This document shows positions 1 to 17,896 of a stretch of 64,000 bases of DNA, one piece after another. Each line of letters opens with the position of its first letter. Position 1 is the first letter of the stretch. The stretch covers positions 3,136 to 67,135 of the forward strand of contig JBLWZG010000008.1 in the NCBI GenBank assembly GCA_048266525.1, in the 5' to 3' direction. This stretch comes from Pseudomonas sp. (GTDB taxonomy: Bacteria; Pseudomonadota; Gammaproteobacteria; Pseudomonadales; Pseudomonadaceae). Under the pieces are notes generated by a model, which searched no databases, had not been told where the DNA came from, and worked only from the letters and a program-made list of their open reading frames with translations. The translations under genes were made by a program, and so were the position numbers.

Positions 1-2022
1 GGATTATCCAGTCCTAAGCGTTATTTGTGGGATGAAAACGCCTATGATCATGGTTGGCGTTTTAATTCCTCTTACATTAAAAGTGACACGGAAGCACATG
101 CCACTGCGGCGCCATTTTCCCATTTGATCGATGAATACGGGGAAGCCTTATTTACCTTGGATGAAGATGACCGTTTGCCGGTTTTCTTGCCGCGCTATTC
201 GCGCAGTTCCTTGATGACTTTTATGTTGGCCGAAGTGCTCGCCCAAGCACTGTGTCAAATCAACAGTCCGGCCCAGCGTGCACGCCAAGGGCAGACAGAC
301 ACACCGCGCCGCCTCAATAGCATTACCCTGACTGTACCGCCGGGTATGGCGCAAGCTGAGCGTGCTATTTTGCAAGAGCGCTTAAACCAAGCGATCGTTT
401 TAGTGTGGAAAAGCCTCGGTTGGCACAGCGGTGAAGAGTCGCCGTTTCTTGCCGGTAAAGAAGCCAATCCCTTTAATCCTAAGCCAAGCGTGCCAATGCC
501 CAAAACCAGCGTGGAGTGGGATGAGGCGTCTTGTGGACAGCTGGTCTACCTCTTCACCGAAATTAATGAGCACTTTGGTGGTCACCCTGAAGAGTTCTTC
601 AAAGCGATTTTGCGGCCGGATAAGAAACTGCAAAAACGTGATGAAAGAATCACTTTGGCCAGCATTGATATCGGTGGCGGCACCACTGACCTGGTGATTA
701 CTGAGTACCGGCTTGATCGTGCCGGGAGTAATAGCAGCGGCAGTAACGTGCATATTGTGCCCAAGCAGCTGTTTCGTGACAGCTTCAAAGTGGCCGGTGA
801 TGACATTGTTTTAGATGTGATCCAAACCTTTATTTTGCCCAGCTTCGCCCATGCGCTGGAAAACATTGGGATTAAAGAGACAGAGGCTTTGCTGGCCATT
901 TTGTGCGGCAACGACTCGGTCAGTACGCAAAACCAAATTTATCGTCAGCAGCTGACTTTGCAGGTGTTTGTCCCGATTGCCTTGAGCATTTTAAAGAAAT
1001 ACGAAGACTACAATCCGGAAGAGCCAGAGGGGCGTTTGACCTTCAGCTATGAGGAGCTGATGCAGGGTTCAAGAGCCAGCCCTGAGGTGCAAGACTTTGT
1101 TGTGAGTATGTTGCGGCGCAATCTGCGACGCAATGACATTGTGTTTGATGTGCATACAGTCAACATCGACATTGACTTACAAAAGCTGCATGGCATGTTT
1201 TTGTCAGGGAAAATAACCATCACCGATTCACTGTCGGCACTCTGTGAAGTGATCACCCAGTACCCTTGTGACATGTTGTTATTAACCGGTCGACCATCGC
1301 GCTTACCGGGTCTGCAAGCCTTTGTGCGTAAGAGTCTGCCGCTGCCTCCAGGGCGTATTTTACCGATGCACAACTACCATACCGGTGGTTGGTACCCGTT
1401 CCATAAAAACGGCATGATCGATGATCCAAAAACCACCGCAGCAGTCGGCGCGATGCTCTGTATGTTGTCGGCCAACTACAGCATTTTAAGTTTCTACTTC
1501 CGCTCGATTGATTTAAAGCCGTACTCCACCATTCGTTATTTTGGCGTGATTGATAATACCAACCATGTCAGTCTCGGTGACGTGCTCTACAGTGATATCA
1601 AAACGGCAGATGGCAAAATGCAATTGCCCAGCGAAGATGGAACTGAAGAAAGCGAGACACCGCCACTTGAGTTCCGTGGTGATATTCGCTTGGGTTTCCG
1701 TCAATTACCGATTCAGCGCTGGACCGCATCGCCTTTGTACACCTTGCGTTTTACTGACTCAGGTAAAGAAAAGTACACCCGCGCATCGAAGCAGAATAAT
1801 GAAATTCCTGTCTTAAAAATTCGTTTTAAAGTTAAGGATCCGACTGAGTATATGAAGAAGATGGGTATTAATAGTGACCGTTTAGAGGTCTCGAAAGTTG
1901 AGTGCAGCGTCACTAGCAGCACCTTCAATCTGCGCACAGACTTTAAGCTTGAGCTCAATACAATGCTAGATACCGATATGAGTGATACCAATTATTGGCT
2001 TGATAGTGGGAATGTGAAATGA
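1..2022 (+). CDS. srfB: SrfB-family protein (actin/Hsp70-like ATPase fold), 5' end cut by window edge
   Basis: Frame 1 is open from base 1 (GLSSPKRYLWDEN...), so the TTG at 25 in the ORF track is not the true start. The overall sequence is recognised as the SrfB family. It carries IDIGGGTTDL (phosphate-1-like) and LLLTGRPSRLPG motifs. Its stop overlaps the next ATG (ATGA at 2019-2022). Confidence 0.8.
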   Translation, partial: GLSSPKRYLWDENAYDHGWRFNSSYIKSDTEAHATAAPFSHLIDEYGEALFTLDEDDRLPVFLPRYSRSSLMTFMLAEVLAQALCQINSPAQRARQGQTDTPRRLNSITLTVPPGMAQAERAILQERLNQAIVLVWKSLGWHSGEESPFLAGKEANPFNPKPSVPMPKTSVEWDEASCGQLVYLFTEINEHFGGHPEEFFKAILRPDKKLQKRDERITLASIDIGGGTTDLVITEYRLDRAGSNSSGSNVHIVPKQLFRDSFKVAGDDIVLDVIQTFILPSFAHALENIGIKETEALLAILCGNDSVSTQNQIYRQQLTLQVFVPIALSILKKYEDYNPEEPEGRLTFSYEELMQGSRASPEVQDFVVSMLRRNLRRNDIVFDVHTVNIDIDLQKLHGMFLSGKITITDSLSALCEVITQYPCDMLLLTGRPSRLPGLQAFVRKSLPLPPGRILPMHNYHTGGWYPFHKNGMIDDPKTTAAVGAMLCMLSANYSILSFYFRSIDLKPYSTIRYFGVIDNTNHVSLGDVLYSDIKTADGKMQLPSEDGTEESETPPLEFRGDIRLGFRQLPIQRWTASPLYTLRFTDSGKEKYTRASKQNNEIPVLKIRFKVKDPTEYMKKMGINSDRLEVSKVECSVTSSTFNLRTDFKLELNTMLDTDMSDTNYWLDSGNVK

Positions 2023-4715
2023 CTGTACGTACATTAACCGCAAAGCAAAGTCAGCTGATTGCCAAGTGGAAGGCTGTCTATGCGGGTTCTGAACAGGCGC
2101 TGAACTGGATTGCTCAGACGCGCGCAAACGCCCCCCGTTTGGATGCTGAGGCCGATGATTTTAATCTAAAGCTGTACCGCGCCCGTAACCTTGCGCGCAG
2201 TCTACAGCGTGTCGCTGGCACGCCGATGACGGTAGGCTTTTTCGGTTTATCGCAAGCCGGCAAGTCATACTTGATTTCTGCACTGGCCGCTGATCAAGAC
2301 GGCGAGCTAGAAACAGATATTGGTAACAGTCAGACACTTAATTTTATCGACCATTTCAACCCAGTGGGCAGCGGTAAAGAGGCGACAGGCTTGGTCACGC
2401 GCTTTACTTGTCAAAGCCAGCCGATTGAAGATGCAAACTATCCGCTGCAATTGCGCCTGTTTCAAGAAATTGAAATTGCCATGATTTTGTCCAACGCCTG
2501 GTTCAAAGACTTTGATCAAGAGCGGGTTGATTTCAAAATCAGCGAAGAGTTGATTCAGCGTGTCCTTGCGCCGTATGACAACCTCGATACCACGCAACCG
2601 GTTGCCGGGGTCAGTGCCGAAGACATTGTGGCGCTGGCCGACTACTTGCACGCCACTTCCAAAAACTCAGTGGGTAAGCTTGAAGCGCACTACTGGCCAC
2701 GCTTAATTAAAATTGCACCTTATCTAAGCATTGCGCAGCGCGCCGATGTGTTCTCGATTCTTTGGGGTCAGCAAGCTTTATTGAGTAAAACCTACGTTGA
2801 GTTAAGCACGGCTTTGCATAAAGTGAGCTTGGCCGACATTGTGTATGCGCCGATCAGTGTGTTGGTGCAGCCGCGAGGTGACGCGCTGGTACAAAGCAAC
2901 AGCATTATGAATGTTGATACTTTGAACTTGCTACTAACGTCGCGTGATACCTCAGTGCAAGTACGTCCCATGCTTAATGGACAGCTGGGTCAAGCGCAGT
3001 CCATTTTAACGGCGCAATTGACCGCACTGACCACAGAAATGGTTTTCCCTCTCGCCAGTGCACCAAAAAATAAAATTGTTGAAGAGGTTGATTTACTCGA
3101 TTTTCCGGGCTATCGCACCCGCCAGCAATTTATCAAGATTGAAGATGCCGCTGCTTCTGACTCTGAAGCCAGCCCTGTTGCGCGTTTACTTCTGCGCGGC
3201 AAGGTGGCCTATTTGTTTGAGCGCTACACCACTTCGCAAGAAATGAGTGCGTTGGTCATGTGCACCAGCTCTTTCAAACAAAGTGATGTGGTGACTGTAG
3301 GCCCGGTGTTAACCGACTGGATCAATAACACCCAAGGAGCCACAGCCGAGGAGCGCCAGGGGCGTTGCGGTTTGATTTGGGCGTTAACCATGATGGACGG
3401 TTTTATCACTAGCTCGCTCAGCCTTAAAACTGAGCAAGTGCCTGAAGCCTGTGAAAACATGCTCAAACTGACCATGATGGAGCGTTTTGGCAATTTAAAC
3501 TGGATGCAAGAGTGGGGTTTGGGCAAACCTTTCAATAATACCTTTTTTGTCCGCAAGCCGGGTTTGCAAACACCTTTTATTCAGCTTGATGGGCAAGAGC
3601 GTGAGGTCAATCTCGCCGAGCAGCATATCGGTAAACTCAGCGAGTTGCGGCAAACCTTAGTGGCTACGCCCTCTGTTGTGCGTCACATAGCCAACGCTGG
3701 CGAAGCCTGGGATGCGATGTTGCTGTTGAATGATGGTGGTATGGCGCGCTTTACCGAAAGCTTTACCAATGCGGCCAATATTGAGTTTAAACTGGATCGT
3801 ATTCAGCAGCAGTGGCAACAGCTCGATGACAGCCTGACAGGAGGTTTGAGACGTTGGTATCAAGCCGATGGCGATGCCGCCCTAGATGAAAAACGTGGCA
3901 AAGCGCAGTTGGTGCTGCAGGGCTTGGGCCCTTATGCGGCCTCTATAGGCGAGTTGATGCAGTATATGGCGGTGCCAGATGATGTCTTGCGCAACTTATA
4001 TTTAAGTGGCGTTTACGAAGACAATAACAGCGATGCCAGTGCAGACACCGCAAGCACCAGTAGCAGCCTGTATTCCAATGACGCGGGTTTTGATTTTGGC
4101 AATATTTTCAGTACGGAAACTGCAGCGCCAGTGCTGGAAAACACCACGCGTAAAGTCACCAGCCATGAACAACGGTTTGCCAAAGCGGTATTCAGTGCTT
4201 GGGTGGGTCACTTGCGTGACCTTTCAGAGCGTACGCAAGTGCTTAATATCCTCTCCCTGAAGCGTGAGGTGGTCAGCGCCCTGGTTGATGAAATGATTAC
4301 CTCCAGCTACCGTTTCGGCTTGCAAGATAAGCTGACCGAGGCACTGTTAGCACATGCGCAAACGGGTAATCGCCGCGAGCAAACTGTCGAAAAGCAAATA
4401 CTCACCACGCAGATTATTTTGCAAGATTATATTGCTTGGTTGGGTAATTTAGATTTGCCGGCCAGTCAACGCTCGAAGCGCCATGTCAATAAAGCCCCAG
4501 GCGAGGTGTTTGATTTTTATCCTCAAGAGGGACCAACAGATTTACCGCAACTGCCAGAAAAACCTGAAGATCCAAGCCGCCGCTATTTAATGGATTGGTT
4601 TTCTTCAGTGGTAGATGTGACGTTAAACAATGCTGGGCATAGTCAAGGGCGTGAAATCACCTTGGAACAAAATAATGCTCTGGGTGCGGTTTTACAAACA
4701 TTTAAGGCATTTTAA
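2019..4715 (+). CDS. srfC: SrfC-family protein, P-loop (dynamin-like) GTPase
   Basis: 898-aa ORF. G1/Walker A is GLSQAGKSYLISAL and a DxxG-type G3 is LLDFPGYR. Family recognised as SrfC. It is translationally coupled to srfB. Confidence 0.8.
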   Translation: MTVRTLTAKQSQLIAKWKAVYAGSEQALNWIAQTRANAPRLDAEADDFNLKLYRARNLARSLQRVAGTPMTVGFFGLSQAGKSYLISALAADQDGELETDIGNSQTLNFIDHFNPVGSGKEATGLVTRFTCQSQPIEDANYPLQLRLFQEIEIAMILSNAWFKDFDQERVDFKISEELIQRVLAPYDNLDTTQPVAGVSAEDIVALADYLHATSKNSVGKLEAHYWPRLIKIAPYLSIAQRADVFSILWGQQALLSKTYVELSTALHKVSLADIVYAPISVLVQPRGDALVQSNSIMNVDTLNLLLTSRDTSVQVRPMLNGQLGQAQSILTAQLTALTTEMVFPLASAPKNKIVEEVDLLDFPGYRTRQQFIKIEDAAASDSEASPVARLLLRGKVAYLFERYTTSQEMSALVMCTSSFKQSDVVTVGPVLTDWINNTQGATAEERQGRCGLIWALTMMDGFITSSLSLKTEQVPEACENMLKLTMMERFGNLNWMQEWGLGKPFNNTFFVRKPGLQTPFIQLDGQEREVNLAEQHIGKLSELRQTLVATPSVVRHIANAGEAWDAMLLLNDGGMARFTESFTNAANIEFKLDRIQQQWQQLDDSLTGGLRRWYQADGDAALDEKRGKAQLVLQGLGPYAASIGELMQYMAVPDDVLRNLYLSGVYEDNNSDASADTASTSSSLYSNDAGFDFGNIFSTETAAPVLENTTRKVTSHEQRFAKAVFSAWVGHLRDLSERTQVLNILSLKREVVSALVDEMITSSYRFGLQDKLTEALLAHAQTGNRREQTVEKQILTTQIILQDYIAWLGNLDLPASQRSKRHVNKAPGEVFDFYPQEGPTDLPQLPEKPEDPSRRYLMDWFSSVVDVTLNNAGHSQGREITLEQNNALGAVLQTFKAF

Positions 4716-4717
4716 GC

Positions 4718-5803
4718 ATGAGAATTAATGTTCGCTTAGATTCACTAGCGCCGAATATTCCTGGTCAGGCGCAGATGTCGATTAAAAACTGGAGCGGTGA
4801 GGTGAGCGGCTTAAAGTTCACCGTGCAACGCCACCAAGACCTCGGTTATTTAAACGGCGTACAACATGATTGGAGCAATAGTGAATATTGGTTCCAACTC
4901 AGTAGTGTCGAGCAGGATGGAGAGTTTCTGCGCGTTAATATCGGTGCAGACTTACTTGATCCGTTGCTTGAAGACATTAACGCCAACTACCGCATTACGC
5001 TGCGTAACAATGACGGTGTAAACCAGTCTGGCACGCTTAAAATTGCTTCCAGCTTGCTGCCCAGCAGTGCCTTGGGTAGCAGTCAGGCGCATCAAGCCTC
5101 AGGTCATCTTTCATCCCCTGTTGCAGCTTCTGTGCCAGAGCCACAGGCAGAACCACAGCCAGAACCAGAGTTCAGTTTAGACTTGCCGGCAGAAGAGTCC
5201 GAGCCCCAAATCGTGGTGGAGGAGCAAACGCCTGTTGCCGCCGCAGAGCCGGTTGTCAGTGCGCCGCCAGCACCTTCGCCGCAGGCGAGTAACAGCAGCA
5301 GTAAGAGGGTGTTAATTATTCTTCTGCTTGTGTTGTTGTTGCTAGCAATTGCTGGTGCGGTATGGTGGTTTTTACAGAAAAAAGACACTGCAACCAGCCC
5401 GGTTGCCCCTGTTGCACAAACTGAAGTTGGCGTAAGCCCTCCAGCCGCTGTTGCGGCGGGCGTATGTTCGCTGGCCAGTATGCAAGCGCAAGATGAGCTG
5501 AGCTTTATTCAAAACTGCTTGCAAGAATCAAATGACAGTCAGGCATTGCTCGAGGTGATTGGTCAGGCTAAAGCCAACAGTCACTGTGGTATTGCGCAGC
5601 GTTTATATGCCAATCGAGCGCAGTCAGGTGATGCGCTGATTGCTCTGGCCTACGCCAAAGAATACGACCCTGAGTTTTTCGTCGCCAATGATTGTTTCAA
5701 AGAAGCCAATATAGAAACGGCTGTGTATTGGTATGAAACTGTGCTGTTGAATCAACCTGACAATGCTGAAGCAGCTCAACGCTTAGAAGGATTAGTCCAG
5801 TGA
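4718..5803 (+). CDS. Bitopic membrane protein: N-terminal domain, Pro/Glu-rich linker, one TM helix, C-terminal Sel1/TPR-like repeats
   Basis: The ATG lies 2 nt after the srfC stop. The linker reads PEPQAEPQPEPEF, the TM helix is VLIILLLVLLLLAIAGAVWWFL, and the C-terminus (AQRLYANRAQSGDALIALAYAKEYD...AVYWYETVLLNQPDNAEAAQRL) looks like Sel1 repeats. Confidence 0.6.
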   Translation: MRINVRLDSLAPNIPGQAQMSIKNWSGEVSGLKFTVQRHQDLGYLNGVQHDWSNSEYWFQLSSVEQDGEFLRVNIGADLLDPLLEDINANYRITLRNNDGVNQSGTLKIASSLLPSSALGSSQAHQASGHLSSPVAASVPEPQAEPQPEPEFSLDLPAEESEPQIVVEEQTPVAAAEPVVSAPPAPSPQASNSSSKRVLIILLLVLLLLAIAGAVWWFLQKKDTATSPVAPVAQTEVGVSPPAAVAAGVCSLASMQAQDELSFIQNCLQESNDSQALLEVIGQAKANSHCGIAQRLYANRAQSGDALIALAYAKEYDPEFFVANDCFKEANIETAVYWYETVLLNQPDNAEAAQRLEGLVQ

Positions 5804-7743
5804 AATTAACTCTAACTCGCTTGGCGTGTACGCTGCTGGGCTCATTAAGTTTCAGTATGCTTGCTATAGCTGCGGATACACCCTTGTTGCAAGAGGGCAA
5901 AAAGACCTTGTACCAGCGCGTGTTAACCACGCCAGGTTGCCAGTTGGCCACTCAGGCTGGGCAACGCAAAGGAGTCGAGCAGGCTGCATTTAGCCGCTTT
6001 TATGTGTACGAGCGTGACAGCAGTGCTGGCAGTGAGTGGCTTAAAGTTGGGCCTGACAGCTATGGTAAAACCATTGGTTGGCTGCCCGCGAGCTGTGTGG
6101 TGGACTGGAAAATGCAGTTGACCTTAGCCTTTACCAACCCAGCGAATCGCGATCGTATGTTGTTTTTTAAAGATCGCCTCGCGTTAGAAAATATTTTGGA
6201 TTCAGAAAACCCTGCAGCGGCTGTTGAGCCATTGCGTGCATCGCTCAAATCGAAAAACACCGCTCAGAGCGTGTTAGCGCAAGAGCCAGAGTTCTACATC
6301 GACTTACAAAAGCAGTTTTATTTGCTGCCTATTTTAAGCGGTGAAGAAGTCATGACTGAAGAAGGTTTTCGCGCACGGGTACTCAATGTAGCTTCCGTCT
6401 CCAAGGATGATGGCAACTCTGCGGCCGCTCCAGATGTGACCAATCAGTTAAAAGAGTTCAGCGCCGCTGTTGTCTTTGTGATTGATTCAACCATCTCCAT
6501 GCAGCCGTACATTGAGCGCACGCGACAAGCCATTGAGAATATTTACAAGCGCGTTGAAGAAGAAAACCTGAGTAAGCAAGTGAAGTTTGGTCTGATTTCT
6601 TTTCGCAGCAGTACCAAAGATCGAGCGGGCCTTGAGTACTTAACCAAAATGTACGCTGACCCCAGTACGGTTAAAGATGGTGCTGATTTCTTAAATAAAA
6701 TCAAAGGCTTACAGCAGGCTAAAGTGTCTACTGCATATTGGCATGAAGACCCTATGGCCGGTGTCATGCAAGCGATTGAGCAGATTAAGTGGAACGAGTT
6801 TGGTGCCCGTTACATCGTCTTAATTACGGATGCCAGTGCGATCGAGGGTGATGATGTTTTAAGCTCAACAGGTCTGAGCGCCGAGCAAGTTCGCATCGAA
6901 GCGAGCAAGCCAGGCGTCGCCATTTACACCTTGCACCTAAAAACCCCAAAAGGTGAGAAAGATCACGCGCGCGCTGAAGCACAGTATCAAACCCTGTCCA
7001 CCTACTCATCGACCAATACCTCTCTTTATTACCCGGTTAATGCCGGTGACGTTGAGCAATTTGGGCAGAAAGTCGATGCGTTGGCCAATGCCATTACTGG
7101 CCAAGTAAAAGCTGCTTATATCGGTGACGATGCGGTTGGCAGTGCCGCAAATGCGCAGACTGTTGAAGAAGATAAACTGCTCGCAGACGCCAAGTTAATT
7201 GGCCATGCCATGCAGTTGGCTTATTTGGGTAATAAAACCGGCGCTAAAGCGCCGCCGGTGTTTCAGGCATGGATCAGTGACCGCGACTTGGTCAAACAAA
7301 ATATCCCCACCACCGATGTGCGAGTGCTGCTGACAAAAGCGCAATTAAGTGATCTGAGCGACATCATGAAAGAGATCTTAAATGCGGCCAATGAAGGTTT
7401 GATTTCGCCTTCGGAAATGTTCAGTCGTCTACGTTCAGTGGCCGCAACTATGGGCGCTGACCCCAATCAGCTGCAACAAAAAAACAGCACTAAGCTGGCC
7501 GAGCTGGGTGTGATGGGCGAGTACCTAGAAGATTTACCCTACCAAAGTGAAGTGCTCAACTTAGACGAAGAAACCTGGAAAGGTTGGGACGGCTTAGCTC
7601 AAGAAAAGTTTATCCGTAATGTCAGTACAAAGCTGCGTCACTACCAGCGCTATAACGCTGATGTGGATCGCTGGGTCAAGCTCACTGCCAGCGCCGACGC
7701 CCGTGAAGATGTGTACCCTGTGCCGCTGGAGATGATGCCTTAA
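5800..7743 (+). CDS. Secreted von Willebrand factor A (vWA) domain protein
   Basis: The GTG start overlaps the upstream stop (GTGA). Signal peptide is MKLTLTRLACTLLGSLSFSMLAIAA. The MIDAS-type DxSxS motif is VFVIDSTISM, with a later IVLITDASA. Confidence 0.75.
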   Translation: MKLTLTRLACTLLGSLSFSMLAIAADTPLLQEGKKTLYQRVLTTPGCQLATQAGQRKGVEQAAFSRFYVYERDSSAGSEWLKVGPDSYGKTIGWLPASCVVDWKMQLTLAFTNPANRDRMLFFKDRLALENILDSENPAAAVEPLRASLKSKNTAQSVLAQEPEFYIDLQKQFYLLPILSGEEVMTEEGFRARVLNVASVSKDDGNSAAAPDVTNQLKEFSAAVVFVIDSTISMQPYIERTRQAIENIYKRVEEENLSKQVKFGLISFRSSTKDRAGLEYLTKMYADPSTVKDGADFLNKIKGLQQAKVSTAYWHEDPMAGVMQAIEQIKWNEFGARYIVLITDASAIEGDDVLSSTGLSAEQVRIEASKPGVAIYTLHLKTPKGEKDHARAEAQYQTLSTYSSTNTSLYYPVNAGDVEQFGQKVDALANAITGQVKAAYIGDDAVGSAANAQTVEEDKLLADAKLIGHAMQLAYLGNKTGAKAPPVFQAWISDRDLVKQNIPTTDVRVLLTKAQLSDLSDIMKEILNAANEGLISPSEMFSRLRSVAATMGADPNQLQQKNSTKLAELGVMGEYLEDLPYQSEVLNLDEETWKGWDGLAQEKFIRNVSTKLRHYQRYNADVDRWVKLTASADAREDVYPVPLEMMP

Positions 7744-8445
7744 ATGCTCACTGTTCAAGGATTGAAAATAACCCGAGGGAGTGGTGAGCAACAACATCAA
7801 GTGGTGCTGCCGCACCTTGAGTTGGCCGCCGGTCAAGTGCTGGCGGTCACCGGTGAAAGTGGCTGTGGTAAAAGCACTTTATTGGAAGTCTTAGGTTTGC
7901 TGCTCAAGCCTGACCGAGTGGATATTTTCCAGTTGGGGCAGCCAAGCATCGATATCGTTGACTTACAACTCAAGCAGAATGAAAGTGTGTTGGCGCAGAT
8001 ACGTGCGCAACGCTTAGGCTTTGTTCTGCAAAACGGTGGCTTACTGCCGTATCTCAATGTGCGCGATAACATTCAGCTGCCACGCCGTATCTTAGGTTTA
8101 AGCGCTGACAGTGCGCGTATCCAACAGGCGATTGCCACCCTCAAACTTGAGCATTTGCTGGATAAATTGCCGCAAGCTTTATCGATTGGTGAGCGTCAGC
8201 GCGTGGCCTGCTTGCGCGCTATCGCCCATGAGCCTCAGTTGCTCTTGGCCGATGAGCCAACGGCTGCGCTTGACCCGCACAGTGCGCGACGCTTGTTTAA
8301 CCTGTTTCTTGAAGTGGTCAGTGCTTTGCAACTCAGTGCGCTGGTGGTGTCACACGATTGGGCATTGGTTAAAGAGTTTAATTTACCGGTCTTGCACGCT
8401 CATAGTGAGCCAGGAGTCAGCACCTTTGCGCTCGCCCACCGTTAG
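7744..8445 (+). CDS. ABC transporter ATP-binding protein (LolD/MacB-type)
   Basis: The ATG directly abuts the upstream TAA. Walker A GESGCGKST, signature LSIGERQR, Walker B LLLADEPTAALD, H-loop VVSHD. Confidence 0.9.
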   Translation: MLTVQGLKITRGSGEQQHQVVLPHLELAAGQVLAVTGESGCGKSTLLEVLGLLLKPDRVDIFQLGQPSIDIVDLQLKQNESVLAQIRAQRLGFVLQNGGLLPYLNVRDNIQLPRRILGLSADSARIQQAIATLKLEHLLDKLPQALSIGERQRVACLRAIAHEPQLLLADEPTAALDPHSARRLFNLFLEVVSALQLSALVVSHDWALVKEFNLPVLHAHSEPGVSTFALAHR

Positions 8446-9649
8446 TTTTTGGCTATTACTGCGTCTTGCTACGCGTGACCTCTGGCATGACCGCAAGGTG
8501 TCTTTTTGCATTGCCGCCTCTTTGGTTGCGGTGATTGCGCCCTTGCTATTGCTGTTTGGTTTAAAGCATGGGGTGGTCAATCAGTTGCAAGATGAGTTGC
8601 TCAGTGATCCACGTAATCTTGAAATAAAAATGCTCGCCAGTGGCAACTATTCAAGTCAATGGATACAGGATCTACAAGCTACGCCGGGGGTTGGTTTTGC
8701 CATCGGGCAAACCCGCTCACTCAATACCCAGGCCGATTTATTTATTGATAATCGGCGTTTTGTGGAAAACGCCGAGGTGATTCCAACCGCAGCGCATGAT
8801 CCACTGCTCAACAACACTTTGAGTGATTTGCAAGCGGGGCAAACCATTTTGAGCTACAGCGCTGCTCAGCGTTTAAATGTGAACGTGGGCGATACTCTTC
8901 GCCTGCGGGTCTTGCGCAAGTTGGAGCACGTCAATGAGCGCGGTGAGCTGGAGTTAACCATTGTCGCAGTGCTGGATGCCAGCCGTTTTTCCCGTCCTGC
9001 GGCCTTTGTAAACTTGCCTTTACTGATCGCCTTAGAGCAGTTTCGTGACGGTGTCAGCATGCCTGAGTTTGGCTTAGATACCGGTACGCCGCCAGCCAAC
9101 AATCCGGTCAGCTTTTCCAAAGTGCGCCTGTATGCACAGAGCATGGATGATGTGGCGGGGTTAAGTGACCGCTTAGCCGAGCAGCGCATTGAAACCAGCA
9201 GTCGACTGGCTGAAATAGACAGCGTGAAAGCGATTAATCATGTGCTTGGTTTGATTTTTGCAGTGATTGCTTTAACCGCACTGGTCGGCTGCATTGCTTC
9301 ATTGGTGGGCGCGTTTTTAGCCAATATTGACCGCAAGCGTAAAGATTTAGCGGTGCTGAGGCTGCTGGGCTTTACCCATCAAGCGATTGGCGCCTATGTG
9401 ATAGTGCAAGCATTAATCATTACCCTATTGGCCTATCTGGTGGGCTTGTTGCTCTATGCCATCGCCAGTGAGCTGTTCAATAACGTTTTAATCAGTAACC
9501 AAAGTACCAACCAGTTTGCCTGCCAGATTAATCTGAGCCACGGCCTTCTGGCTTTGTTATTGGCTGTGGTGGTAGCGGTATCTGTTTCCTGCATTGGTGC
9601 CGTGCGCGCTATTCGTATTCAACCGGCGGAGAGTTTACGTGAACTATAA
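8426..9649 (+). CDS. FtsX-like ABC permease (MacB/LolCE type, 4 TM with periplasmic domain)
   Basis: The tracked ORF (8111-9649) overlaps the ATPase gene in its first 335 nt, so the realistic start is TTG 8426 or GTG 8405. The N-terminus LRLATRDLWHDRKVSF plus a TM is typical of this type. The C-terminal FtsX module reads RKRKDLAVLRLLGF... Confidence 0.75.
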   Translation: MRSPTVSFWLLLRLATRDLWHDRKVSFCIAASLVAVIAPLLLLFGLKHGVVNQLQDELLSDPRNLEIKMLASGNYSSQWIQDLQATPGVGFAIGQTRSLNTQADLFIDNRRFVENAEVIPTAAHDPLLNNTLSDLQAGQTILSYSAAQRLNVNVGDTLRLRVLRKLEHVNERGELELTIVAVLDASRFSRPAAFVNLPLLIALEQFRDGVSMPEFGLDTGTPPANNPVSFSKVRLYAQSMDDVAGLSDRLAEQRIETSSRLAEIDSVKAINHVLGLIFAVIALTALVGCIASLVGAFLANIDRKRKDLAVLRLLGFTHQAIGAYVIVQALIITLLAYLVGLLLYAIASELFNNVLISNQSTNQFACQINLSHGLLALLLAVVVAVSVSCIGAVRAIRIQPAESLREL

Positions 9650-11180
9650 AAAATGGCTGAGCATCAGTCTCTTCAGTGCATCGCTGAGCTTGGTGAGTGC
9701 AGCACAGGCCGAAATCACTTGGAATGAAAAACACTACAACCCCGCGGCACTGGCGGATGATGTCACCCTGCCGATGCCCTGCGGTGGCGCGATGGTGTTT
9801 CGCAAAGTGTATATCCCATCCAGTAGCCCGTTGGATGATTATTCCATTCAGCTGGGTCAGGACAGTGAAGACTGGGGCTATGTTGAGCACACGCGGCCAA
9901 CCTTCGTCGCGGGAAGCTTTTCTGAGCCAAATAACAACTCACGTTATTACTTGATGGCCAAGTATGAGATGACTGAGTTGCAATATCAGGCACTGATGAC
10001 GCAAGCGTGCGTGAGCTCTTCCAACAAGTTGCGTCTGCCAGCAGTCAGTTATAGCTGGATGAATGCCATGCAAGCTGCGGACACATACAATTTATGGTTG
10101 CGTCAACAAGCCGCTAAAGTCTTGCCGAAAGAAGATGGGGTGATGGGTTTTGTGCGCTTACCCACCGAGGTTGAGTGGGAGTTTGCCGCACGCGGCGGGC
10201 TGGAAGTGGCTACAGCTGAGTTTCGTGACAACCGTTATCCTATGCCAGACGGAATCAATAACTATGAATGGTTTTCTGGCGCACAGTCGGCCAACGGTAA
10301 ATTGCAGCTCAGTGGCTTATTACAAGCCAATCCGCTGGGCCTGCACGACATGCTGGGCAACGCTTCAGAAATGATGTTTGAATCCTTTCGTCTGAATAAG
10401 CTCGACCGTAACCATGGCCAGGCCGGTGGTTATATCGTGCGTGGCGGCAACTACTTAAGCAAAGCAGAGGATATTCGCAGCGCCAATCGTCGCGAAGAGT
10501 CGTATTACTCTGACAGCGGTGAACAGGGCAATAAAACCACAGGCTTTCGTCTGGTGTTAACCGCACCTATTCTAACCTCGCGCGAACGTGTCGCCAGTAT
10601 TGAACAAAGCTGGAAGACCCTTGGTAGTGGTAATGCTGTTGATGGCAGCCAAGCGAGCACCTCGGAGCTGGGTAAAATTGCCTCTAAAATTGAAGACAAA
10701 GCCCTTAAAGAGCAAATCAAAACCGTAGAAAGTCAGCTGCGCGCCAGTAATCAGCAGCAAGAAGAAGCACGTAATCAAGCGATTCGTGCCAGTCTTAATT
10801 TGGGCGCGTTTTTATGCACAAAAATGCTAGATGACGGCAAGTATTTAGACTTTTTACAGAATAACTATAGTATTAACTGCGCAGTTGAAGAACCTGATGC
10901 AAGTTGTGGTATGCGCAAGAGCAAACTCGACGAGCAAGAGGAACGCTTAAGTAAACTCAGCCGTTATTATGCCAGCAGCCTGATTGATGCAGCGACCTTG
11001 TATGGTGAGTCGGCGATTAAGCAGCAAGTGCCGGTGATGACTGAGATTGTGGAACGTAATAAGCAACTCAGCGAATTAAAGCCTTATTTAGCGGCACACT
11101 GGGATAACCAGAAGTCGTTTCTAAAAAGCCAGCAAATCACTACTAAACAGTGGCTGGAAAACTGTAAAACAGTACGTTAA
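9639..11180 (+). CDS. Secreted FGE-sulfatase (SUMF1/PvdO) fold protein with C-terminal coiled coil
   Basis: GTG at 9639 follows a GGAGAG RBS and yields the signal peptide VNYKKWLSISLFSASLSLVSAAQA. Family motifs are WEFAARGG, GLHDMLGNASEMM, RGGNY and GFRLV. The C-terminal 170 aa are heptad-like and Q/E/K rich. Confidence 0.75.
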   Translation: MNYKKWLSISLFSASLSLVSAAQAEITWNEKHYNPAALADDVTLPMPCGGAMVFRKVYIPSSSPLDDYSIQLGQDSEDWGYVEHTRPTFVAGSFSEPNNNSRYYLMAKYEMTELQYQALMTQACVSSSNKLRLPAVSYSWMNAMQAADTYNLWLRQQAAKVLPKEDGVMGFVRLPTEVEWEFAARGGLEVATAEFRDNRYPMPDGINNYEWFSGAQSANGKLQLSGLLQANPLGLHDMLGNASEMMFESFRLNKLDRNHGQAGGYIVRGGNYLSKAEDIRSANRREESYYSDSGEQGNKTTGFRLVLTAPILTSRERVASIEQSWKTLGSGNAVDGSQASTSELGKIASKIEDKALKEQIKTVESQLRASNQQQEEARNQAIRASLNLGAFLCTKMLDDGKYLDFLQNNYSINCAVEEPDASCGMRKSKLDEQEERLSKLSRYYASSLIDAATLYGESAIKQQVPVMTEIVERNKQLSELKPYLAAHWDNQKSFLKSQQITTKQWLENCKTVR

Positions 11181-11205
11181 CTCTTACTATTAAAGGATAA
11201 AATCC

Positions 11206-11931
11206 ATGGATATCACTCGTCTGTTCAACCATAAAACCCTCGTCAGTTTAGCGATTTCTAGTGCCATTCTTTTATCCGGTTGTGCATCAACTGGCAGTGA
11301 CATGACAGCAGGTTCGGCGGATTCACGCTTAACCAAGAGTGAAAGCGCTAAGTTTTTTAGCAAATCCGGTTATCAAGCCTGTGCCGTCGGCGCCGGGGTT
11401 GGCGTGTTGGCCTGCTTAGCCTCCAATACCAGCAATAAAGCAGCTTGTGCGATCGCTGCAGGCATTACCGCGTGTGGTGTGGCCATGGGGGCAAACTATT
11501 ATTTGGATGATCGTCGTAGCCAGTACGCCGATACCAATGAGCGTTTGCAGGCGATGACCCAAGATATTCAGCAAGATACCGACCGTGTGGTACAGCGTAC
11601 CCAAGTGGCACAACGTGTGATTGCCGATGACAAAGCGCTGATGGCTAAGATTGAGCAAGATCGCGCCAGTAAAAAACTTGATGTTGCTAAAGCAAACAAA
11701 GACTTAGCCTCGATTGATAATAATATAGCCCTGCTGAAAAAAGATTTGAAAAACATGCAATTTAAGGCAGAAGAATATGCAAAAGCCGCGCAAAAAGAGC
11801 GCGAAGATGGGGCCGGTGACAAAGTGGCGCTGATGGATCAAGAAATTGCGCGCATGAATCAAAAAGTGGCCTTGTTGCAGACTGAAGTAGATGGTCTGTT
11901 TGATCAGCGTTCAGCGATTACCTTAGGATAA
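11206..11931 (+). CDS. Lipoprotein with Gly/Ala/Cys-rich glycine-zipper-like segment and coiled-coil tail
   Basis: Lipobox is LLSGC. The glycine-zipper-like stretch is ACAVGAGVGVLACLAS...AAGITACGVAMGANYY. The C-terminal half is charged and heptad-like. Confidence 0.65.
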   Translation: MDITRLFNHKTLVSLAISSAILLSGCASTGSDMTAGSADSRLTKSESAKFFSKSGYQACAVGAGVGVLACLASNTSNKAACAIAAGITACGVAMGANYYLDDRRSQYADTNERLQAMTQDIQQDTDRVVQRTQVAQRVIADDKALMAKIEQDRASKKLDVAKANKDLASIDNNIALLKKDLKNMQFKAEEYAKAAQKEREDGAGDKVALMDQEIARMNQKVALLQTEVDGLFDQRSAITLG

Positions 11932-11935
11932 TCTA

Positions 11936-12427
11936 ATGCAAAAACTATTATTGAGTACTGCGTTGCTGAGTGTGCTGTTGAGTGGTTGTGCTACCCAGCA
12001 AGCATGCGACTCCAGTAAGCACGATCCAAGCTTATTGGAGAAACTCAATTGCGATGTGGGCGGTGGTTATCAGCAGCAAATTAGCCAAAGGGAACGCGAT
12101 TTATTGGATGCGCAAGCTGAAAACAAGTTGTTTCATGAGGTCTATGTGCAGATTGAGGCACAGCAGCAGTCAGTGCGTACTGACTTGCTCAGCCAGCAGA
12201 AGCAACAGGCGCAACTGCAAGCCAGCCTCAATCAGTTACTGCGCCAACTGAAGACAAAACATGCGGCAAAAGCTGACACGCAACAGCAGTTAGCCGCGCT
12301 GCAAGCGCAGTCCTTAAGTTTGCAATCAGTCACCAGTAACGATCCGCAAGTGATAAAGCAAAAGCAAGAACAGCTGGTTGAATTACAGCGGCAAGTCAGT
12401 CGTTTGCAATTGAGTTTGGGGTATTAA
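11936..12427 (+). CDS. Gln-rich coiled-coil lipoprotein
   Basis: Starts 4 nt after the upstream stop. Lipobox is LLSGC. The sequence shows a Q/L heptad pattern, and a hairpin plus T-run follows the gene. Confidence 0.6.
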   Translation: MQKLLLSTALLSVLLSGCATQQACDSSKHDPSLLEKLNCDVGGGYQQQISQRERDLLDAQAENKLFHEVYVQIEAQQQSVRTDLLSQQKQQAQLQASLNQLLRQLKTKHAAKADTQQQLAALQAQSLSLQSVTSNDPQVIKQKQEQLVELQRQVSRLQLSLGY

Positions 12428-12442
12428 CTGAGCTTATTCTTG

Positions 12443-12478
12443 CTGGCGGCAATGCCTTAGGCGTGCCGCTGGTTTTTT
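12443..12478 (+). terminator. Possible rho-independent terminator
   Basis: Arms GCGGCA/TGCCGC can be extended by wobble pairs and are followed by TTTTTT. Confidence 0.4.
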
Positions 12479-12507
12479 ATCTTTAACCTTTAAGACCTCA
12501 ATCCGTT

Positions 12508-13803
12508 ATGCAAAGAATTCTTCGCAGCAGCATGCTTTACTCCGCGCTGAGCAGTGAAACCCGCGAGCAACATCAAGTCCTGCTTAAAGTCTGTCCGCCG
12601 CATTTAGCACAACTCTTTGCGATCGGCCGCAGCGGCAGTGATGACCAACTTGAATGGTGGACCCCTTTAGGCGGGCAAGCCAAGCCTTACAGTGCTTTGC
12701 CAGATGAACCGCAAAAACAGCTGTTAAAGGTGTTTGAGCAGCGCCAGAAGTCCTTAGCAGAGTTGGCGGATCATCTTGAACAACGGGGACAAACTGCACC
12801 TGCTCAGACGCTGCGCCGACTGCTCAGTGAGATCGATGTGAGCAAGCTCTACAGCATTGATAATCAACCGGTGTTGGTGGAGTACTACCCAGCAGTAGAA
12901 ACCAAAGTAATCCCGCCGGTTGCTGTTGCTAGCGCCGCGGCGGTTGCAACTGGAACTACGGCGGCGGTGGCAGCTGCGCCACGCGTGCTGAAAAAAAGAG
13001 CGCTATGGCCTTGGCTGTTGCTGCTGTTGCTGCTCGGTTTGGCTTTATTGGTCTGGTGGCAATTGCTCTACAAAGATGTTTCTTTTTTGAATGCGGTCAA
13101 GCTGTTCACTGAAAGAGGCAGTCGCATTGAAAGCTATGCTTGCGCCAAGCAACAAAGCAAGAGTAAACCTGACTTTGTCACCGTATTTGATACGTCCGGC
13201 TCGATGACCCTCAATATCAACGCGTCTGCCGCGGATGAAGAGTGGCTGCTGGATATCGGTGGTTTATATGAGCATGACAACCGTGATCCAAGACGTTTAC
13301 GCGTGCTCAGTTCACCAACCCGCGAAGAAGTGGCCAAGCAAGCCTATGGGCATATGCTGGCGAATTTGCATCCAGACATCGACACCCGTCTGATCACCTT
13401 TGCCGGATGTGGCAGCGTGATTGATCATGGTATGCATAACCACCAACAACGTCCTCAGTTGCTCGAACGCCTGCTGCAAAGCAAAGCTGAAGACGGTACA
13501 CCTTTGGCGGAGAGTTTAAGGGTGGCGGCTAGTCAGGTGGATGGCGTTAACAAAGATGCCATGATCATTTTATTTATAGACGGTGAAGATGGTTGTGGTG
13601 AAAATGTCTGCGCGTTGGCAGGGCAGTTGGCCACTGAAAAACCACGCTTACAAATTAATGTGGTGGACGTCAGTGGTAATGGTTTATCCAGTTGTGCGGC
13701 GCGGCTGACCAATGGGCGCATCTACAGCTCGCAAGATGCAGAGCAGATTAATGCTGTGTTCCTAGAGGCGGCTGAAGAGTTCACTGCGGCGGCGTGTGAA
13801 TAA
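12508..13803 (+). CDS. Membrane-anchored vWA domain protein (cytoplasmic N-domain, Ala-rich linker, one TM, periplasmic vWA)
   Basis: TM helix is LWPWLLLLLLLGLALLVWWQLL. MIDAS motif is VTVFDTSGSM, with a later ILFIDGEDGC. Confidence 0.7.
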   Translation: MQRILRSSMLYSALSSETREQHQVLLKVCPPHLAQLFAIGRSGSDDQLEWWTPLGGQAKPYSALPDEPQKQLLKVFEQRQKSLAELADHLEQRGQTAPAQTLRRLLSEIDVSKLYSIDNQPVLVEYYPAVETKVIPPVAVASAAAVATGTTAAVAAAPRVLKKRALWPWLLLLLLLGLALLVWWQLLYKDVSFLNAVKLFTERGSRIESYACAKQQSKSKPDFVTVFDTSGSMTLNINASAADEEWLLDIGGLYEHDNRDPRRLRVLSSPTREEVAKQAYGHMLANLHPDIDTRLITFAGCGSVIDHGMHNHQQRPQLLERLLQSKAEDGTPLAESLRVAASQVDGVNKDAMIILFIDGEDGCGENVCALAGQLATEKPRLQINVVDVSGNGLSSCAARLTNGRIYSSQDAEQINAVFLEAAEEFTAAACE

Positions 13804-16356: not shown

Positions 16357-16450
16357 CGTTAATCAGTTTGAGCGCGAGGACGCAGAGCACTGCGGTAAGA
16401 ATGAGCCCAGCGCTCAGTGTGCCAAACAATGAATCATGCGGAAGTTTCAT
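16349..16450 (-). CDS. 33-aa single-TM micro-protein (not in ORF track)
   Basis: Hand translation of the minus strand gives MKLPHDSLFGTLSAGLILTAVLCVLALKLINGV*. Its ATG overlaps the stop of the PqqE-like gene (ATGA). Its stop abuts or overlaps the start of the next gene. Confidence 0.45.
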   Translation of the reverse strand: MKLPHDSLFGTLSAGLILTAVLCVLALKLINGV

Positions 16451-17842: not shown

Positions 17843-17896
17843 AGTGTTAGCGCCTTAATAAGGAGCACTGGGAAAAGCATTCCCAGCGCTCTACTG

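Follow-up and report, generated by a model that had tools for sequence, protein, structure and literature searches.

The srf genes, which are annotated as "virulence factors," are found across hundreds of species and on over 100 plasmids of clinical Klebsiella, and they raise the question of what such a locus does. We addressed this question for positions 1 to 13803 of a 64,000-nucleotide stretch of Pseudomonas sp. DNA (GenBank assembly GCA_048266525.1, contig JBLWZG010000008.1, positions 3,136 to 67,135 of the forward strand), which we refer to as the window. There, srfB and srfC are followed by eight genes, encoding a membrane protein (gene 3), a secreted von Willebrand factor A protein (vWA1, gene 4), the ATPase and the FtsX-type permease of an ATP-binding cassette (ABC) transporter, a protein with the fold of the formylglycine-generating enzyme (FGE), two lipoproteins (LpA and LpB), and a second, membrane-anchored vWA protein (gene 10). 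An earlier note on this DNA had described the set as envelope spanning, with two cytoplasmic NTPases, two vWA proteins bearing a metal ion-dependent adhesion site (MIDAS), a MacB/Lol-type ABC transporter, an FGE fold, and coiled-coil lipoproteins. That description stands, except that half of the locus is not anonymous: vWA1, ABC, FtsX, FGE, and LpA are homologous to, and collinear with, the periplasmic part of PpkA, TagT, TagS, TagR, and TagQ from type VI secretion systems (T6SSs). A sensor cassette of the type known from the threonine phosphorylation pathway (TPP) of T6SSs is, with high probability, functionally coupled to SrfABC.

Half of the locus is homologous to TagQRST and PpkA

The link to T6SSs was found through an exhaustive HMMER search with vWA1, which returned 1280 relatives, most of them free-standing proteins of about 650 amino acids. 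Two longer relatives, P0309 (995 aa) and P0346 (1028 aa), match residues 27 to 647 of vWA1 at 43% (E 1e-138) and 37% (E 4e-112), respectively, and combine an N-terminal Hanks kinase (Pkinase) domain, a transmembrane (TM) segment, and the vWA domain, which is the architecture of PpkA. P0346 ends a cluster that reads Fha-TssJ-TssK-TssL-TssM-TagF-PP2C-kinase (locus L093), which is the order of the Pseudomonas aeruginosa H1-T6SS genes from PA0081 to PA0074, and P0309 stands in the order TagF-kinase-ABC-FtsX-FGE (locus L094). These T6SS, TagF, and PppA settings settle the identity of both kinases as PpkA-type. At L094, the homology extends over the neighboring genes (tblastn): vWA1 aligns over 635 aa at 40.8% (E 3e-147), the ABC ATPase over 198 aa at 39% with the gene after ppkA, which holds the same gene position (E 9e-43), the permease over 404 of its 407 aa at 34% (E 3.5e-51), and the FGE-fold protein over 403 aa at 44% with the gene after the permease (E 1.5e-102). 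A homologue search with the FGE-fold protein, aimed at TagR of P. aeruginosa, gave only close orthologues back. TagR, TagS, and TagT correspond to COG1262, COG4591, and COG1136 (PMC13584744). The periplasmic vWA domain of PpkA is a sensor domain that is engaged by TagR (PMC3224232), and without TagQRST and PpkA, T6SSs do not assemble locally in the seconds after the outer membrane is damaged mechanically or chemically (PMC11881912).

The counterpart of TagQ is more distant. The NCBIfam model VI_TagQ matches 32 of 39 LpA orthologues with a best E value of 1.8e-13, where coiled-coil noise lies at about 1e-5, and the LpA of the window scores 23.7 bits against an equivalog cut-off of 300; LpA is therefore a remote TagQ homologue and not an equivalog. 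Its lipobox reads LSGC, a glycine-zipper covers approximately residues 55 to 100, and its orthologue in Klebsiella is annotated as a glycine zipper protein. LpB always lies after LpA, including in loci where the two genes stand upstream of srfA and in an Azospirillum cassette that lacks srf genes (both described below). Paralogy between LpA and LpB was considered, at a probability of 96% in hhalign, and not accepted as firm, as the coiled coil may inflate the score.

In vWA1, the MIDAS motif DxSxS (residues 229 to 233) and a LITDA motif are conserved. The permease comprises four TM helices plus a large domain in the periplasm. A sequence search of the PDB relates it most closely to LolC, LolF, and MacB, at only E ~1e-4; LolD and FtsE are the best NCBIfam models for the ATPase, every score being under its cut-off. 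In NCBIfam, neither protein reaches the level of a Lol equivalog (28.2 bits versus 362 for lolCE; 135 versus 308 for LolD). The FGE-fold protein, which has a helical, Cys-containing C-terminal extension, has the structural ring proteins PorK and GldK of the type IX secretion system (T9SS) as its closest solved relatives. Across 77 orthologues, no catalytic Cys pair is conserved at the FGE active-site region (VRGG...R.E...Y). On these grounds of residue conservation we regard the protein as non-catalytic and rejected a catalytic role for it, and its annotation as a "nonheme iron enzyme" is therefore misleading.

The kinase pathway that accompanies TagQRST in T6SS loci was not found here. Pfam detects a Pkinase domain in none of the ten window products, and no PppA-type phosphatase, FHA, TagF, or T6SS core gene was seen in the locus or among the 20 larger open reading frames (ORFs) elsewhere in the window, a set in which we saw no secretion-system gene of any kind. 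Domain scans of the window products likewise show no type III secretion genes, as the earlier note had stated. That note had also allowed that the locus might turn out to be a known named system, and through the PpkA/TagTSRQ homology this has partly come true for vWA1, ABC, FtsX, FGE, and LpA.

The eleven genes form an operon-like unit

The ORF list and a base-by-base reading of the junctions agree that ten co-directional ORFs on the plus strand fill positions 1 to 13803 and that most of them are tightly coupled. All of the junctions described in the earlier note were recovered: srfB and srfC overlap by ATGA (2019-2022), gene 3 starts at 4718 after a gap of 2 nt, gene 3 and vWA1 overlap by GTGA (5800-5803), the stop of vWA1 and the start of the ABC gene read TAAATG (7741-7746), the ABC and permease genes overlap by 20 nt, given a TTG start of the permease at 8426 that we took from gene calls on identical metagenome contigs, the permease and FGE genes overlap by 11 nt (9639-9649), and 4 nt lie between the genes for LpA and LpB. 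Pfam agrees with the products that had been named, with SrfB at 820 bits, SrfC/Virul_Fac at 966 bits, VWA in genes 4 and 10, and ABC_tran, FtsX plus MacB_PCD, and FGE-sulfatase in the transporter and FGE-fold proteins. The proposed series of locations from the cytoplasm to the outer membrane is backed by a hydropathy scan and by motif conservation among orthologues. Hydropathy places no TM segment in SrfB or SrfC, one each in gene 3 and gene 10, and four in the permease; vWA1 and the FGE-fold protein carry Sec signal peptides, and in LpA as in LpB the L-x-G-C lipobox is conserved and followed by Ala at position +2.

The window begins inside srfB. On the identical metagenome contig L001, srfB is complete (1032 aa, 6906-10004) and directly preceded by srfA (488 aa), which matches NCBIfam SrfA_fam (NF040486) at 353 bits with a cut-off of 150 and is itself preceded by about 950 bp of non-coding DNA. 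The unit therefore comprises 11 genes, and srfA, srfB, srfC, gene 3, vWA1, ABC, FtsX, FGE, LpA, LpB, and gene 10 are a single operon-like unit. Its sole sizeable intergenic gap is the spacer between LpB and gene 10, where a GC-rich hairpin (12445-12478) is a possible internal terminator or attenuator. The fold of 12425 to 12510 has a free energy of -23.8 kcal/mol (z -2.6). A consensus terminator scan missed this hairpin because its loop is beyond the limit of the scan; it was spotted by eye and then folded.

The gene set is kept as a block across three proteobacterial classes

We scanned one genome per species (GTDB) with an alignment of SrfC, which gave 569 relatives, and kept the best 80, whose SrfC proteins are 40 to 69% identical; the closest genome among these is Pseudomonas sp. 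F1_0610, with 69% identity in SrfC. A tblastn search with all 11 proteins was then run on the 80 loci, 70 of which had enough flank. This survey of srf neighborhoods, named in the earlier note as a test that could overturn its reading, showed the partners to be strongly conserved. All 11 genes are present in 68 of the 70 loci, and the core srfA-srfB-srfC-gene 3-vWA1-ABC-FtsX-FGE is collinear in 70/70, wherever its genes are present. Gene 3 follows srfC in all 80. Clustering of the genes is far above chance. The distal block LpA-LpB-gene 10 is the movable part, as it lies downstream of the core in 51 loci and upstream of srfA in 13 (Enterobacteriaceae, Aeromonas), with gene 10 alone upstream in 6 others (Proteus and others). 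The two exceptions are one locus in which LpB is not detectable and one in Testudinibacter in which vWA1 is broken by unrelated sequence. In the latter (L074:13758-14300, Testudinibacter sp.), the match to vWA1 ends after about 75 codons, followed by repeat-adhesin-like sequence, and the rest of the cassette is gone; either the locus has been rearranged or the assembly is chimeric.

Carriers include Pseudomonas, Stutzerimonas, Halomonas/Vreelandella, Aeromonas, Citrobacter, Kluyvera, Pantoea, Proteus, and Enterobacteriaceae generally, as well as Gilliamella, Pasteurellaceae, Azotobacter, Advenella, Alcaligenes, Alcaligenaceae, and Burkholderiaceae. Alphaproteobacterial copies lie on plasmids of Haematospirillum and of Cereibacter, the latter without both lipoprotein genes and gene 10. 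The gene set is thus kept as a block over three proteobacterial classes (alpha, beta, and gamma). The best-conserved product of the locus is vWA1, with a median identity of 70% (79 loci), followed by the FGE-fold protein (63%), the permease (61%), the ATPase (60%), SrfB (52%), SrfC (46%), SrfA (41%), gene 10 (38%), and gene 3 (37%). Even a distant vWA1 (32% identity, locus L098) again adjoins SrfB, SrfC, and gene 3.

Plasmid records number 126 for vWA1 versus 143 for SrfC, and the two sets share their 114 Klebsiella records; the gap between the two counts corresponds to a type with srfABC only (Rahnella, Salmonella). The 114 Klebsiella plasmids are large IncF-type plasmids of resistance or virulence, on which the complete locus lies between the insertion sequences (IS) IS1 and IS66. 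On the one from Klebsiella oxytoca (NZ_CP138768.1), the annotation of the gene 10 orthologue reads "tellurite resistance domain protein," and that of vWA1 in a further Klebsiella plasmid record (MN423364.1) reads "Serine/threonine protein kinase." A side observation concerns the DNA upstream of srfA on contig L001, outside the window, where positions 4816 to 4875 look like the terminal 3' part of a tRNA or a tmRNA (containing GGGTTCGAGTCCC and a CCA-like stretch), with a hairpin and then a T-run behind it. The tmRNA match in Rfam is weak (12.7 bits, E 0.0097) and ARAGORN finds no gene, and the fragment may be the scar of an ssrA-integrated island. Further upstream lie a beta-CASP/Lactamase_B protein and small unknowns in foreign-looking DNA.

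Three bitopic proteins, two of which share a cytoplasmic domain

The locus encodes three bitopic inner-membrane proteins with different heads, SrfA, gene 3, and gene 10, and two of these, SrfA and gene 10, share an N-terminal domain (SrfA-N). Comparison of orthologue profiles with hhalign aligns residues 37 to 172 of SrfA with residues 19 to 131 of gene 10 (probability 99.4%, E 4.8e-22), and gene 10 gives a partial match to NCBIfam SrfA_fam (E 7.7e-7). BLASTP of SrfA against gene 10 finds nothing, and the shared domain is visible by profile-profile comparison only. The earlier description of gene 10 as a TM-anchored vWA protein was right about the helix and the vWA domain and missed the paralogy with SrfA. 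Gene 10 consists of a cytoplasmic SrfA-N domain (approximately residues 1 to 125), a TM helix (approximately 165 to 188), and, on the periplasmic side, a vWA domain whose MIDAS is complete, and by these sequence features its layout of cytoplasmic domain, TM, and vWA parallels that of PpkA. Its AlphaFold2 (AF2) model (pLDDT 82) contains an alpha/beta N-domain, a disordered linker, the TM helix, and the vWA domain; vWA matches dominate the Foldseek search, and the C-domain groups with the vWA domains of BatB, LapA, and ANTXR2. D228-x-S230-x-S232, T331, and D358 are invariant, and six Cys are conserved.

Gene 3 has a poorly conserved cytoplasmic N-domain, a TM segment at approximately residues 195 to 220, and a periplasmic, Cys-containing Sel1/TPR-like domain, with a conserved motif (AQRLYA..G..A..YA.EYDP) and four conserved Cys. 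An orthologue in Haematospirillum is annotated as a tetratricopeptide repeat protein, and gene 3 is also present in the distant locus L098. The periplasmic heads are therewith a vWA domain in gene 10, a Sel1/TPR-like domain in gene 3, and a Cys-rich domain with a conserved FLNGKW motif in SrfA, which a preprint describes as lipocalin-like (bioRxiv 10.64898/2026.09.18.752743).

Two plasmid-borne variants concern the same domain. In Cereibacter azotoformans (L010:7125-9653), a "serine protease" upstream of srfB has a domain resembling the N-domains of SrfA and gene 10 (residues 260 to 364), and a separate 246-aa ORF (7046-7783) carries an SrfA-C-like domain; SrfA-N therefore combines with several periplasmic heads. 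In the Bacteroidota member Runella sp. SP2 (L011:16742-19405), SrfB and SrfC lie beside BREX genes and are followed by an "S8 serine peptidase" that bears SrfA-N-like and SrfA-C-like segments and is therefore an SrfA homologue with an inserted protease. No TagRST-like cassette genes are present at this Runella locus.

SrfC is predicted to be dynamin-like and SrfB has the motifs of an ASKHA ATPase

We modeled SrfC with AF2 from a 68-sequence alignment (pLDDT 82, pTM 0.80). The top 33 Foldseek matches of the model in the PDB all belong to the dynamin superfamily, the best being BDLP (2j69, E 1.4e-6, probability 1.0), followed by SynDLP, mitofusins 1 and 2, IniA, Fzo1, and a dynamin-like protein (DLP) of Campylobacter. 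Of the motifs G1 to G4, three could be assigned and are invariant in the 68 sequences: a G1 motif, GLSQAGKS (76-83), a G3 motif, DLLDFPG (358-364), and a G4-like TxxD (457-460). SrfC is thus predicted to be a cytoplasmic dynamin-like large GTPase with the BDLP/mitofusin fold. The earlier label of "P-loop GTPase" fits the invariant P-loop motif and is too general, as the model is more specifically dynamin-like. In the literature that we searched, no paper links SrfC to dynamins.

For SrfB, the earlier assignment as an actin/Hsp70-like ATPase is supported by all three ASKHA motifs, LDVGNSRT (phosphate-1), IDIGGGTTD (phosphate-2), and LLLTGRPSRLP (adenosine), which are invariant in 23 homologues, one of them from Bacteroidota. 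These motifs suggest a cytoplasmic ATPase of the actin/Hsp70 (ASKHA) fold. By sequence or profile, no PDB relative was found for SrfB or for vWA1, and sub-threshold Pfam scans of fragments of SrfB, SrfC, gene 3, vWA1, and the FGE C terminus gave nothing useful.

Published work bears on how these proteins might act. SrfA, SrfB, and SrfC coimmunoprecipitate in Xenorhabdus (PMC6950479), and an AlphaFold3 model docks SrfB on SrfA-N, a domain for which the same preprint claims a kinase-like fold (bioRxiv 10.64898/2026.09.18.752743). Bacterial DLPs gather at damaged membrane and protect from pore-formers and phage (PMC8844932, PMC12998192), and IniA carries out membrane fusion or fission (PMC6715688). 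In Salmonella, an srfC mutant swarms poorly, which is an endogenous phenotype (PMC4219756).

The cassette occurs with other cytoplasmic partners

The cassette also exists apart from the srf genes. On a 2-Mb replicon of Azospirillum brasilense, from an unannotated record (L092:13848-21697), vWA1-ABC-FtsX-FGE-LpA-LpB is complete, about 10 kb downstream of Wadjet JetC/JetD, and none of srfA, srfB, and srfC lies within 14 kb of it. One metagenome contig (L099) has the cassette together with a 908-aa HSP70-family protein, an S41 peptidase, and a glycine-zipper lipoprotein, and also holds a 1842-aa RHS/YD-repeat protein; another (L100) has it with two stand-alone Hanks kinases, PP2C, FHA-vWA, and trypsin-FHA proteins, with no T6SS genes in view. 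The periplasmic cassette thus occurs with other cytoplasmic partners, namely, Hanks kinases and a large Hsp70-family protein. The vWA protein of the cassette varies as well: in L096 it has a 345-aa uncharacterized N-domain and is accompanied by a glycine-zipper lipoprotein and a trypsin-like protease, in L097 it has another N-domain and is accompanied by a TPR protein, and in P0335 a vWA1-like region is fused to an AAA_22/AAA_16 ATPase, beside which the full cassette is absent and only an ABC fragment is found upstream. The T6SS kinases are closer to vWA1 (37 to 43% identity) than are the alphaproteobacterial Srf-linked copies (27 to 31%), which suggests that the kinase fusion arose inside this family.

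A possible envelope-damage response and its alternatives

How might sensor cassette and SrfABC work together? The reading that we favor is that the cassette senses envelope damage and recruits SrfB and SrfC to the inner membrane via SrfA-type anchors, whereupon the membrane is repaired or remodeled; we put this forward tentatively, at somewhat less than an even chance. LpA and LpB would hold the non-catalytic FGE-fold protein at the outer membrane, as in P. aeruginosa, and damage to or deformation of that membrane would alter its contact with the MIDAS faces of vWA1 and gene 10, with the MacB-type ABC transporter setting or resetting the system mechanically at the expense of ATP. The SrfA-type bitopic proteins would then cluster, so that their SrfA-N domains nucleate SrfB and SrfC at the site of damage, and SrfC (with GTP) and SrfB (with ATP) might tether, seal, or remodel the inner membrane. 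Envelope injury would then be answered locally, and this response would take the place of T6SS firing. We infer the contacts among the parts, the direction of signaling, and the membrane-repair output. Overall, the evidence points to sensing or signaling over export.

Several points weigh against such a response. The TM-scores of the SrfC matches are low (0.2 to 0.4), and the dynamin call rests on a predicted structure; by sequence or profile, SrfC has no PDB relative, including the solved DLPs. It also has no hydrophobic paddle (maximum 19-residue Kyte-Doolittle mean, 1.45), and membrane attachment would therefore have to come from SrfA, gene 3, or gene 10. The fold proposed for SrfB is assigned from motifs alone. 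As a soluble protein, vWA1 is without the PpkA kinase that would carry a signal over the inner membrane, and the P. aeruginosa system, too, has no established molecular signal and no settled role for TagTS (PMC11881912). Salmonella and Rahnella have srfABC without the cassette, and SrfABC can therefore act without it. The fusions of SrfA-N to periplasmic proteases in Cereibacter and Runella would fit a machine working from the inside out equally well, and SrfABC preparations were cytotoxic in the Xenorhabdus work (PMC6950479). We consider it rather unlikely that two broader claims hold jointly, namely, that the locus is a dedicated envelope-injury response, a prokaryotic counterpart of eukaryotic plasma-membrane repair, and that the cassette, described until now only as an accessory of the T6SS, is a general-purpose envelope sensor with interchangeable outputs. 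If they did, a TagQRST-type sensor would direct SrfC and SrfB to a lesion to reseal or remodel the inner membrane, and SrfABC, a Hanks kinase acting on a T6SS, an Hsp70-like protein, and an AAA ATPase would be exchangeable as outputs.

The cytotoxicity just mentioned is the starting point for a different explanation, in which SrfABC is a tripartite eukaryotic cytotoxin that the ABC, FGE, and vWA proteins process and export in outer or outer-inner-membrane vesicles. The Xenorhabdus stockiae preparations had cytotoxic and insecticidal effects, with SrfA, SrfB, and SrfC joined in a complex (PMC6950479); vesicle export with a Lol-like helper module has been proposed (bioRxiv 10.64898/2026.09.18.752743), and LeoA of enterotoxigenic Escherichia coli (ETEC) is a DLP tied to vesicle-associated toxin release (PMC4159319), so that a dynamin-like SrfC, as modeled, could itself drive vesicle formation, as proposed for ETEC LeoABC. 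The data come from E. coli lysates and overexpression, however (PMC6950479), and our scans of the 11 proteins revealed no toxin or enzymatic effector domain. SrfA is bitopic in the inner membrane, SrfB and SrfC have neither signal peptide nor TM segment, and the FGE-fold protein is without catalytic cysteines and therefore cannot "modify SrfA-C" as FGE would. Moreover, the locus is widespread among non-pathogens of soil, marine, and plant-associated habitats (Pseudomonas, Halomonas, Azotobacter), and the characterized homologue of the cassette is a sensor and not an exporter; we consider the toxin improbable. In a further explanation, the ABC-FtsX pair would act in Lol-like trafficking, extracting LpA and LpB (or vWA1 or the FGE-fold protein) from the inner membrane for assembly of an outer-membrane complex, with no sensory role. 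The pair does belong to the LolCDE/MacB type VII ABC class, both lipoproteins are predicted to reside in the outer membrane, and the permease has been likened to LolF (bioRxiv 10.64898/2026.09.18.752743). The Lol equivalog scores nevertheless fall far short (28 bits versus 362 for LolCE), and the pair is related to TagTS (E 9e-43 and 3.5e-51) and not to Lol (E ~1e-4). Casabona et al. reportedly found in 2013 that TagQ is sorted independently of TagTS. The cassette is also present with no lipoprotein gene in view next to it in L097 and L098, and trafficking as its function seems very improbable.

Mobility and neighborhood hint at a function in biological conflict, in which the cassette would detect a breach by phage, T6SS, or bacteriocin and SrfB and SrfC would respond protectively or abortively. 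The locus is mobile, being IS-flanked and carried on 114 IncF-type Klebsiella plasmids, and SrfB and SrfC or the cassette lie beside BREX (Runella), Cas3 (L098), and, in the Srf-less Azospirillum case, near Wadjet JetC/JetD; DynA of Bacillus subtilis defends against phage and delays phage-induced lysis (PMC8844932), and the homologous TagQRST answers attacks by neighbor cells (PMC11881912). Against this, the three adjacencies to defense genes are anecdotal, PADLOC-DB 2.0 has no specific match for the ten proteins beyond generic ABC/AAA and coiled-coil hits, and in Pseudomonas genomes the locus is mostly chromosomal, with genes for alcohol oxidation dependent on pyrroloquinoline quinone (PQQ) as its neighbors in the window. 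A conflict system is compatible with the envelope-damage response, with which it overlaps, differing in that conflict would be the selected function, and we give it only a small chance in that stricter form. A machine for surface motility or adhesion, like Myxococcus gliding (MreB, MglA, Glt, and the vWA adhesin CglB) or the T9SS with PorK and GldK, appears very unlikely. It would account for the swarming defect of Salmonella mutants in srfC or the operon, where srfABC is under FlhDC (PMC4219756), for PorK/GldK as closest solved relatives of the FGE-fold protein, and for the intact MIDAS motifs, and there are weak NCBIfam matches to GltJ, CglB, and GldK/GldJ. These gliding matches are far under the cut-offs and partly low complexity, and those to GltJ, CglB, and FliL were dismissed as noise from low-complexity or TM sequence. 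No surface exposure is predicted for either vWA protein, vWA1 being a periplasmic Sec substrate and gene 10 being anchored in the inner membrane; the locus has no TolQR/ExbBD/MotAB-like motor gene, the cassette is far nearer to TagRST than to any T9SS or Glt component, and the Salmonella phenotype comes from a locus without the cassette.

Coordinates of the locus and other features of the window

Table 1. Genes and signals of the srf locus, in positions of the window
Feature	Position	Strand	Basis
srfB, 3' two thirds	1..2022	+	Pfam PF07520, 820.6 bits
srfC, 898 aa	2019..4715	+	Pfam PF10139, 966.3 bits
Gene 3, 361 aa, bitopic inner-membrane	4718..5803	+	One TM segment, conserved motif and Cys
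vWA1 (gene 4), 647 aa, secreted periplasmic	5800..7743	+	Sec signal, MIDAS, PpkA-ectodomain homology
ABC ATPase, 233 aa, TagT-like (LolD/FtsE/MacB class)	7744..8445	+	Pfam ABC_tran, 1.7e-25
FtsX/MacB-type permease, 407 aa, TagS-like	8426..9649	+	Pfam FtsX and MacB_PCD
FGE-fold periplasmic protein, 513 aa, TagR-like	9639..11180	+	Pfam FGE-sulfatase, 7.8e-30
LpA, 241 aa, predicted outer-membrane lipoprotein, coiled coil	11206..11931	+	Lipobox, glycine-zipper, VI_TagQ matches
LpB, 163 aa, second predicted outer-membrane coiled-coil lipoprotein	11936..12427	+	Lipobox L-x-G-C
GC-rich hairpin then U6, in the 80-nt spacer between LpB and gene 10	12445..12478	+	Fold and sequence reading
Gene 10, 431 aa, SrfA paralogue	12508..13803	+	hhalign to SrfA, MIDAS

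Past position 13803, unrelated genes follow on the opposite strand (dihydroorotate [DHO]-dehydrogenase-like, aminotransferase, PqqE-like, and PqqF-like), and what remains of the window forms a PQQ/alcohol-oxidation cluster that includes two-component regulators. The DHO-dehydrogenase-like ORF (13897-14901, minus strand, TTG start) overlaps the upstream aminotransferase ORF (14735-15844, minus strand) by 167 nt; its Pfam match starts at residue 137, and the true start therefore probably lies further in. The PQQ-dependent alcohol-oxidation region (14735-55084) contains quinoprotein dehydrogenases at 35833 to 37716 (minus) and 42856 to 44634 (plus), an aldehyde dehydrogenase, a PqqF-like peptidase, and hybrid sensor kinases, as well as two separate radical-SAM/SPASM PqqE-like genes at 16447 to 17634 (minus) and 48970 to 50118 (plus). 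Between a PqqE-like and a PqqF-like gene, about 1.5 kb (17635-19137) is without a long ORF and has a low GC content of 0.43, with a strong GC skew of 0.235 in 18001 to 19000. An FMN riboswitch at 57523 to 57724 on the plus strand (Rfam RF00050, 83.7 bits, over the gathering score) lies upstream of ORFs from 57844, presumably riboflavin genes.

Significance and comparison with known systems

The earlier note had called the locus uncharacterized, which holds for experiments; the neighborhood itself is in print. In 2013, srfABC was reported to be co-located with tagQRST-like and "ppkA"-like genes in host-associated Deltaproteobacteria (PMC3608642), and in 2026 the same neighborhood was described in Haemophilus and Xenorhabdus, with the transporter read as a Lol-like exporter (bioRxiv 10.64898/2026.09.18.752743). 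As far as the literature that we searched goes, new are the collinear homology of vWA1 with the PpkA ectodomain over its whole length, the paralogy of gene 10 and SrfA, the dynamin-like fold predicted for SrfC, the non-catalytic state suggested for the FGE-fold protein, the modularity of the cassette over several outputs, and the extent of synteny. The resemblance to TagQRST/PpkA and to dynamins turns an anonymous operon into a testable hypothesis, and a kinase-free cassette offers an independent handle on what TagQRST senses and how its ABC part works. It also bears on the role and targeting of bacterial dynamins in Gram-negative cells and corrects the annotations "SUMF1/EgtB/PvdO nonheme iron enzyme," "tellurite resistance domain protein," and, for vWA1, "Serine/threonine protein kinase."

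The srfABC genes of Salmonella enterica and Xenorhabdus stockiae have the same order and overlap likewise, and those studied here are true members of that family; compared to the three-gene srfABC of Salmonella and Rahnella, however, eight further partners are fixed, and the names "virulence factor" and "toxin" are unsupported by any domain that we found. Among bacterial DLPs and mitofusins (BDLP, SynDLP, DynA, IniA of Mycobacterium smegmatis, LeoABC, and Campylobacter DLP1/2), none has detectable sequence similarity to SrfC, whose predicted fold is nonetheless theirs, with N-terminal helices, a large GTPase domain, and a C-terminal helical bundle. Bacterial DLPs are often paired with a second DLP, whereas SrfC is paired with an ASKHA ATPase. 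The transporter shares the topology of type VII ABC systems (LolCDE, MacB, FtsEX), with four TM helices, a periplasmic domain between TM1 and TM2, and a separate ATPase, but scores far under the equivalog cut-offs of Lol, FtsX, and MacB and has TagTS-type pairs as its nearest relatives. PorK and GldK of the T9SS are likewise periplasmic proteins with a non-catalytic FGE fold that go with outer-membrane lipoproteins; the similarity is only ~E 1e-6 over the FGE core, and the protein here is not a lipoprotein and has no T9SS genes beside it. Closest is the threonine phosphorylation pathway of the H1-T6SS, TagQRST-PpkA-Fha1-PppA, with which the locus has five homologous collinear genes and an envelope-spanning layout in common. 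In contrast to that system, no Hanks kinase, PP2C, FHA, TagF, or T6SS core gene was found in the locus or among the larger ORFs of the 64-kb window; vWA1 is a free secreted protein instead of the ectodomain of a kinase, and gene 10 has SrfA-N where PpkA has its kinase. In their place, the locus adds LpB, the Sel1-like gene 3, and a second vWA protein, and its cytoplasmic partners are SrfA, SrfB, and SrfC.

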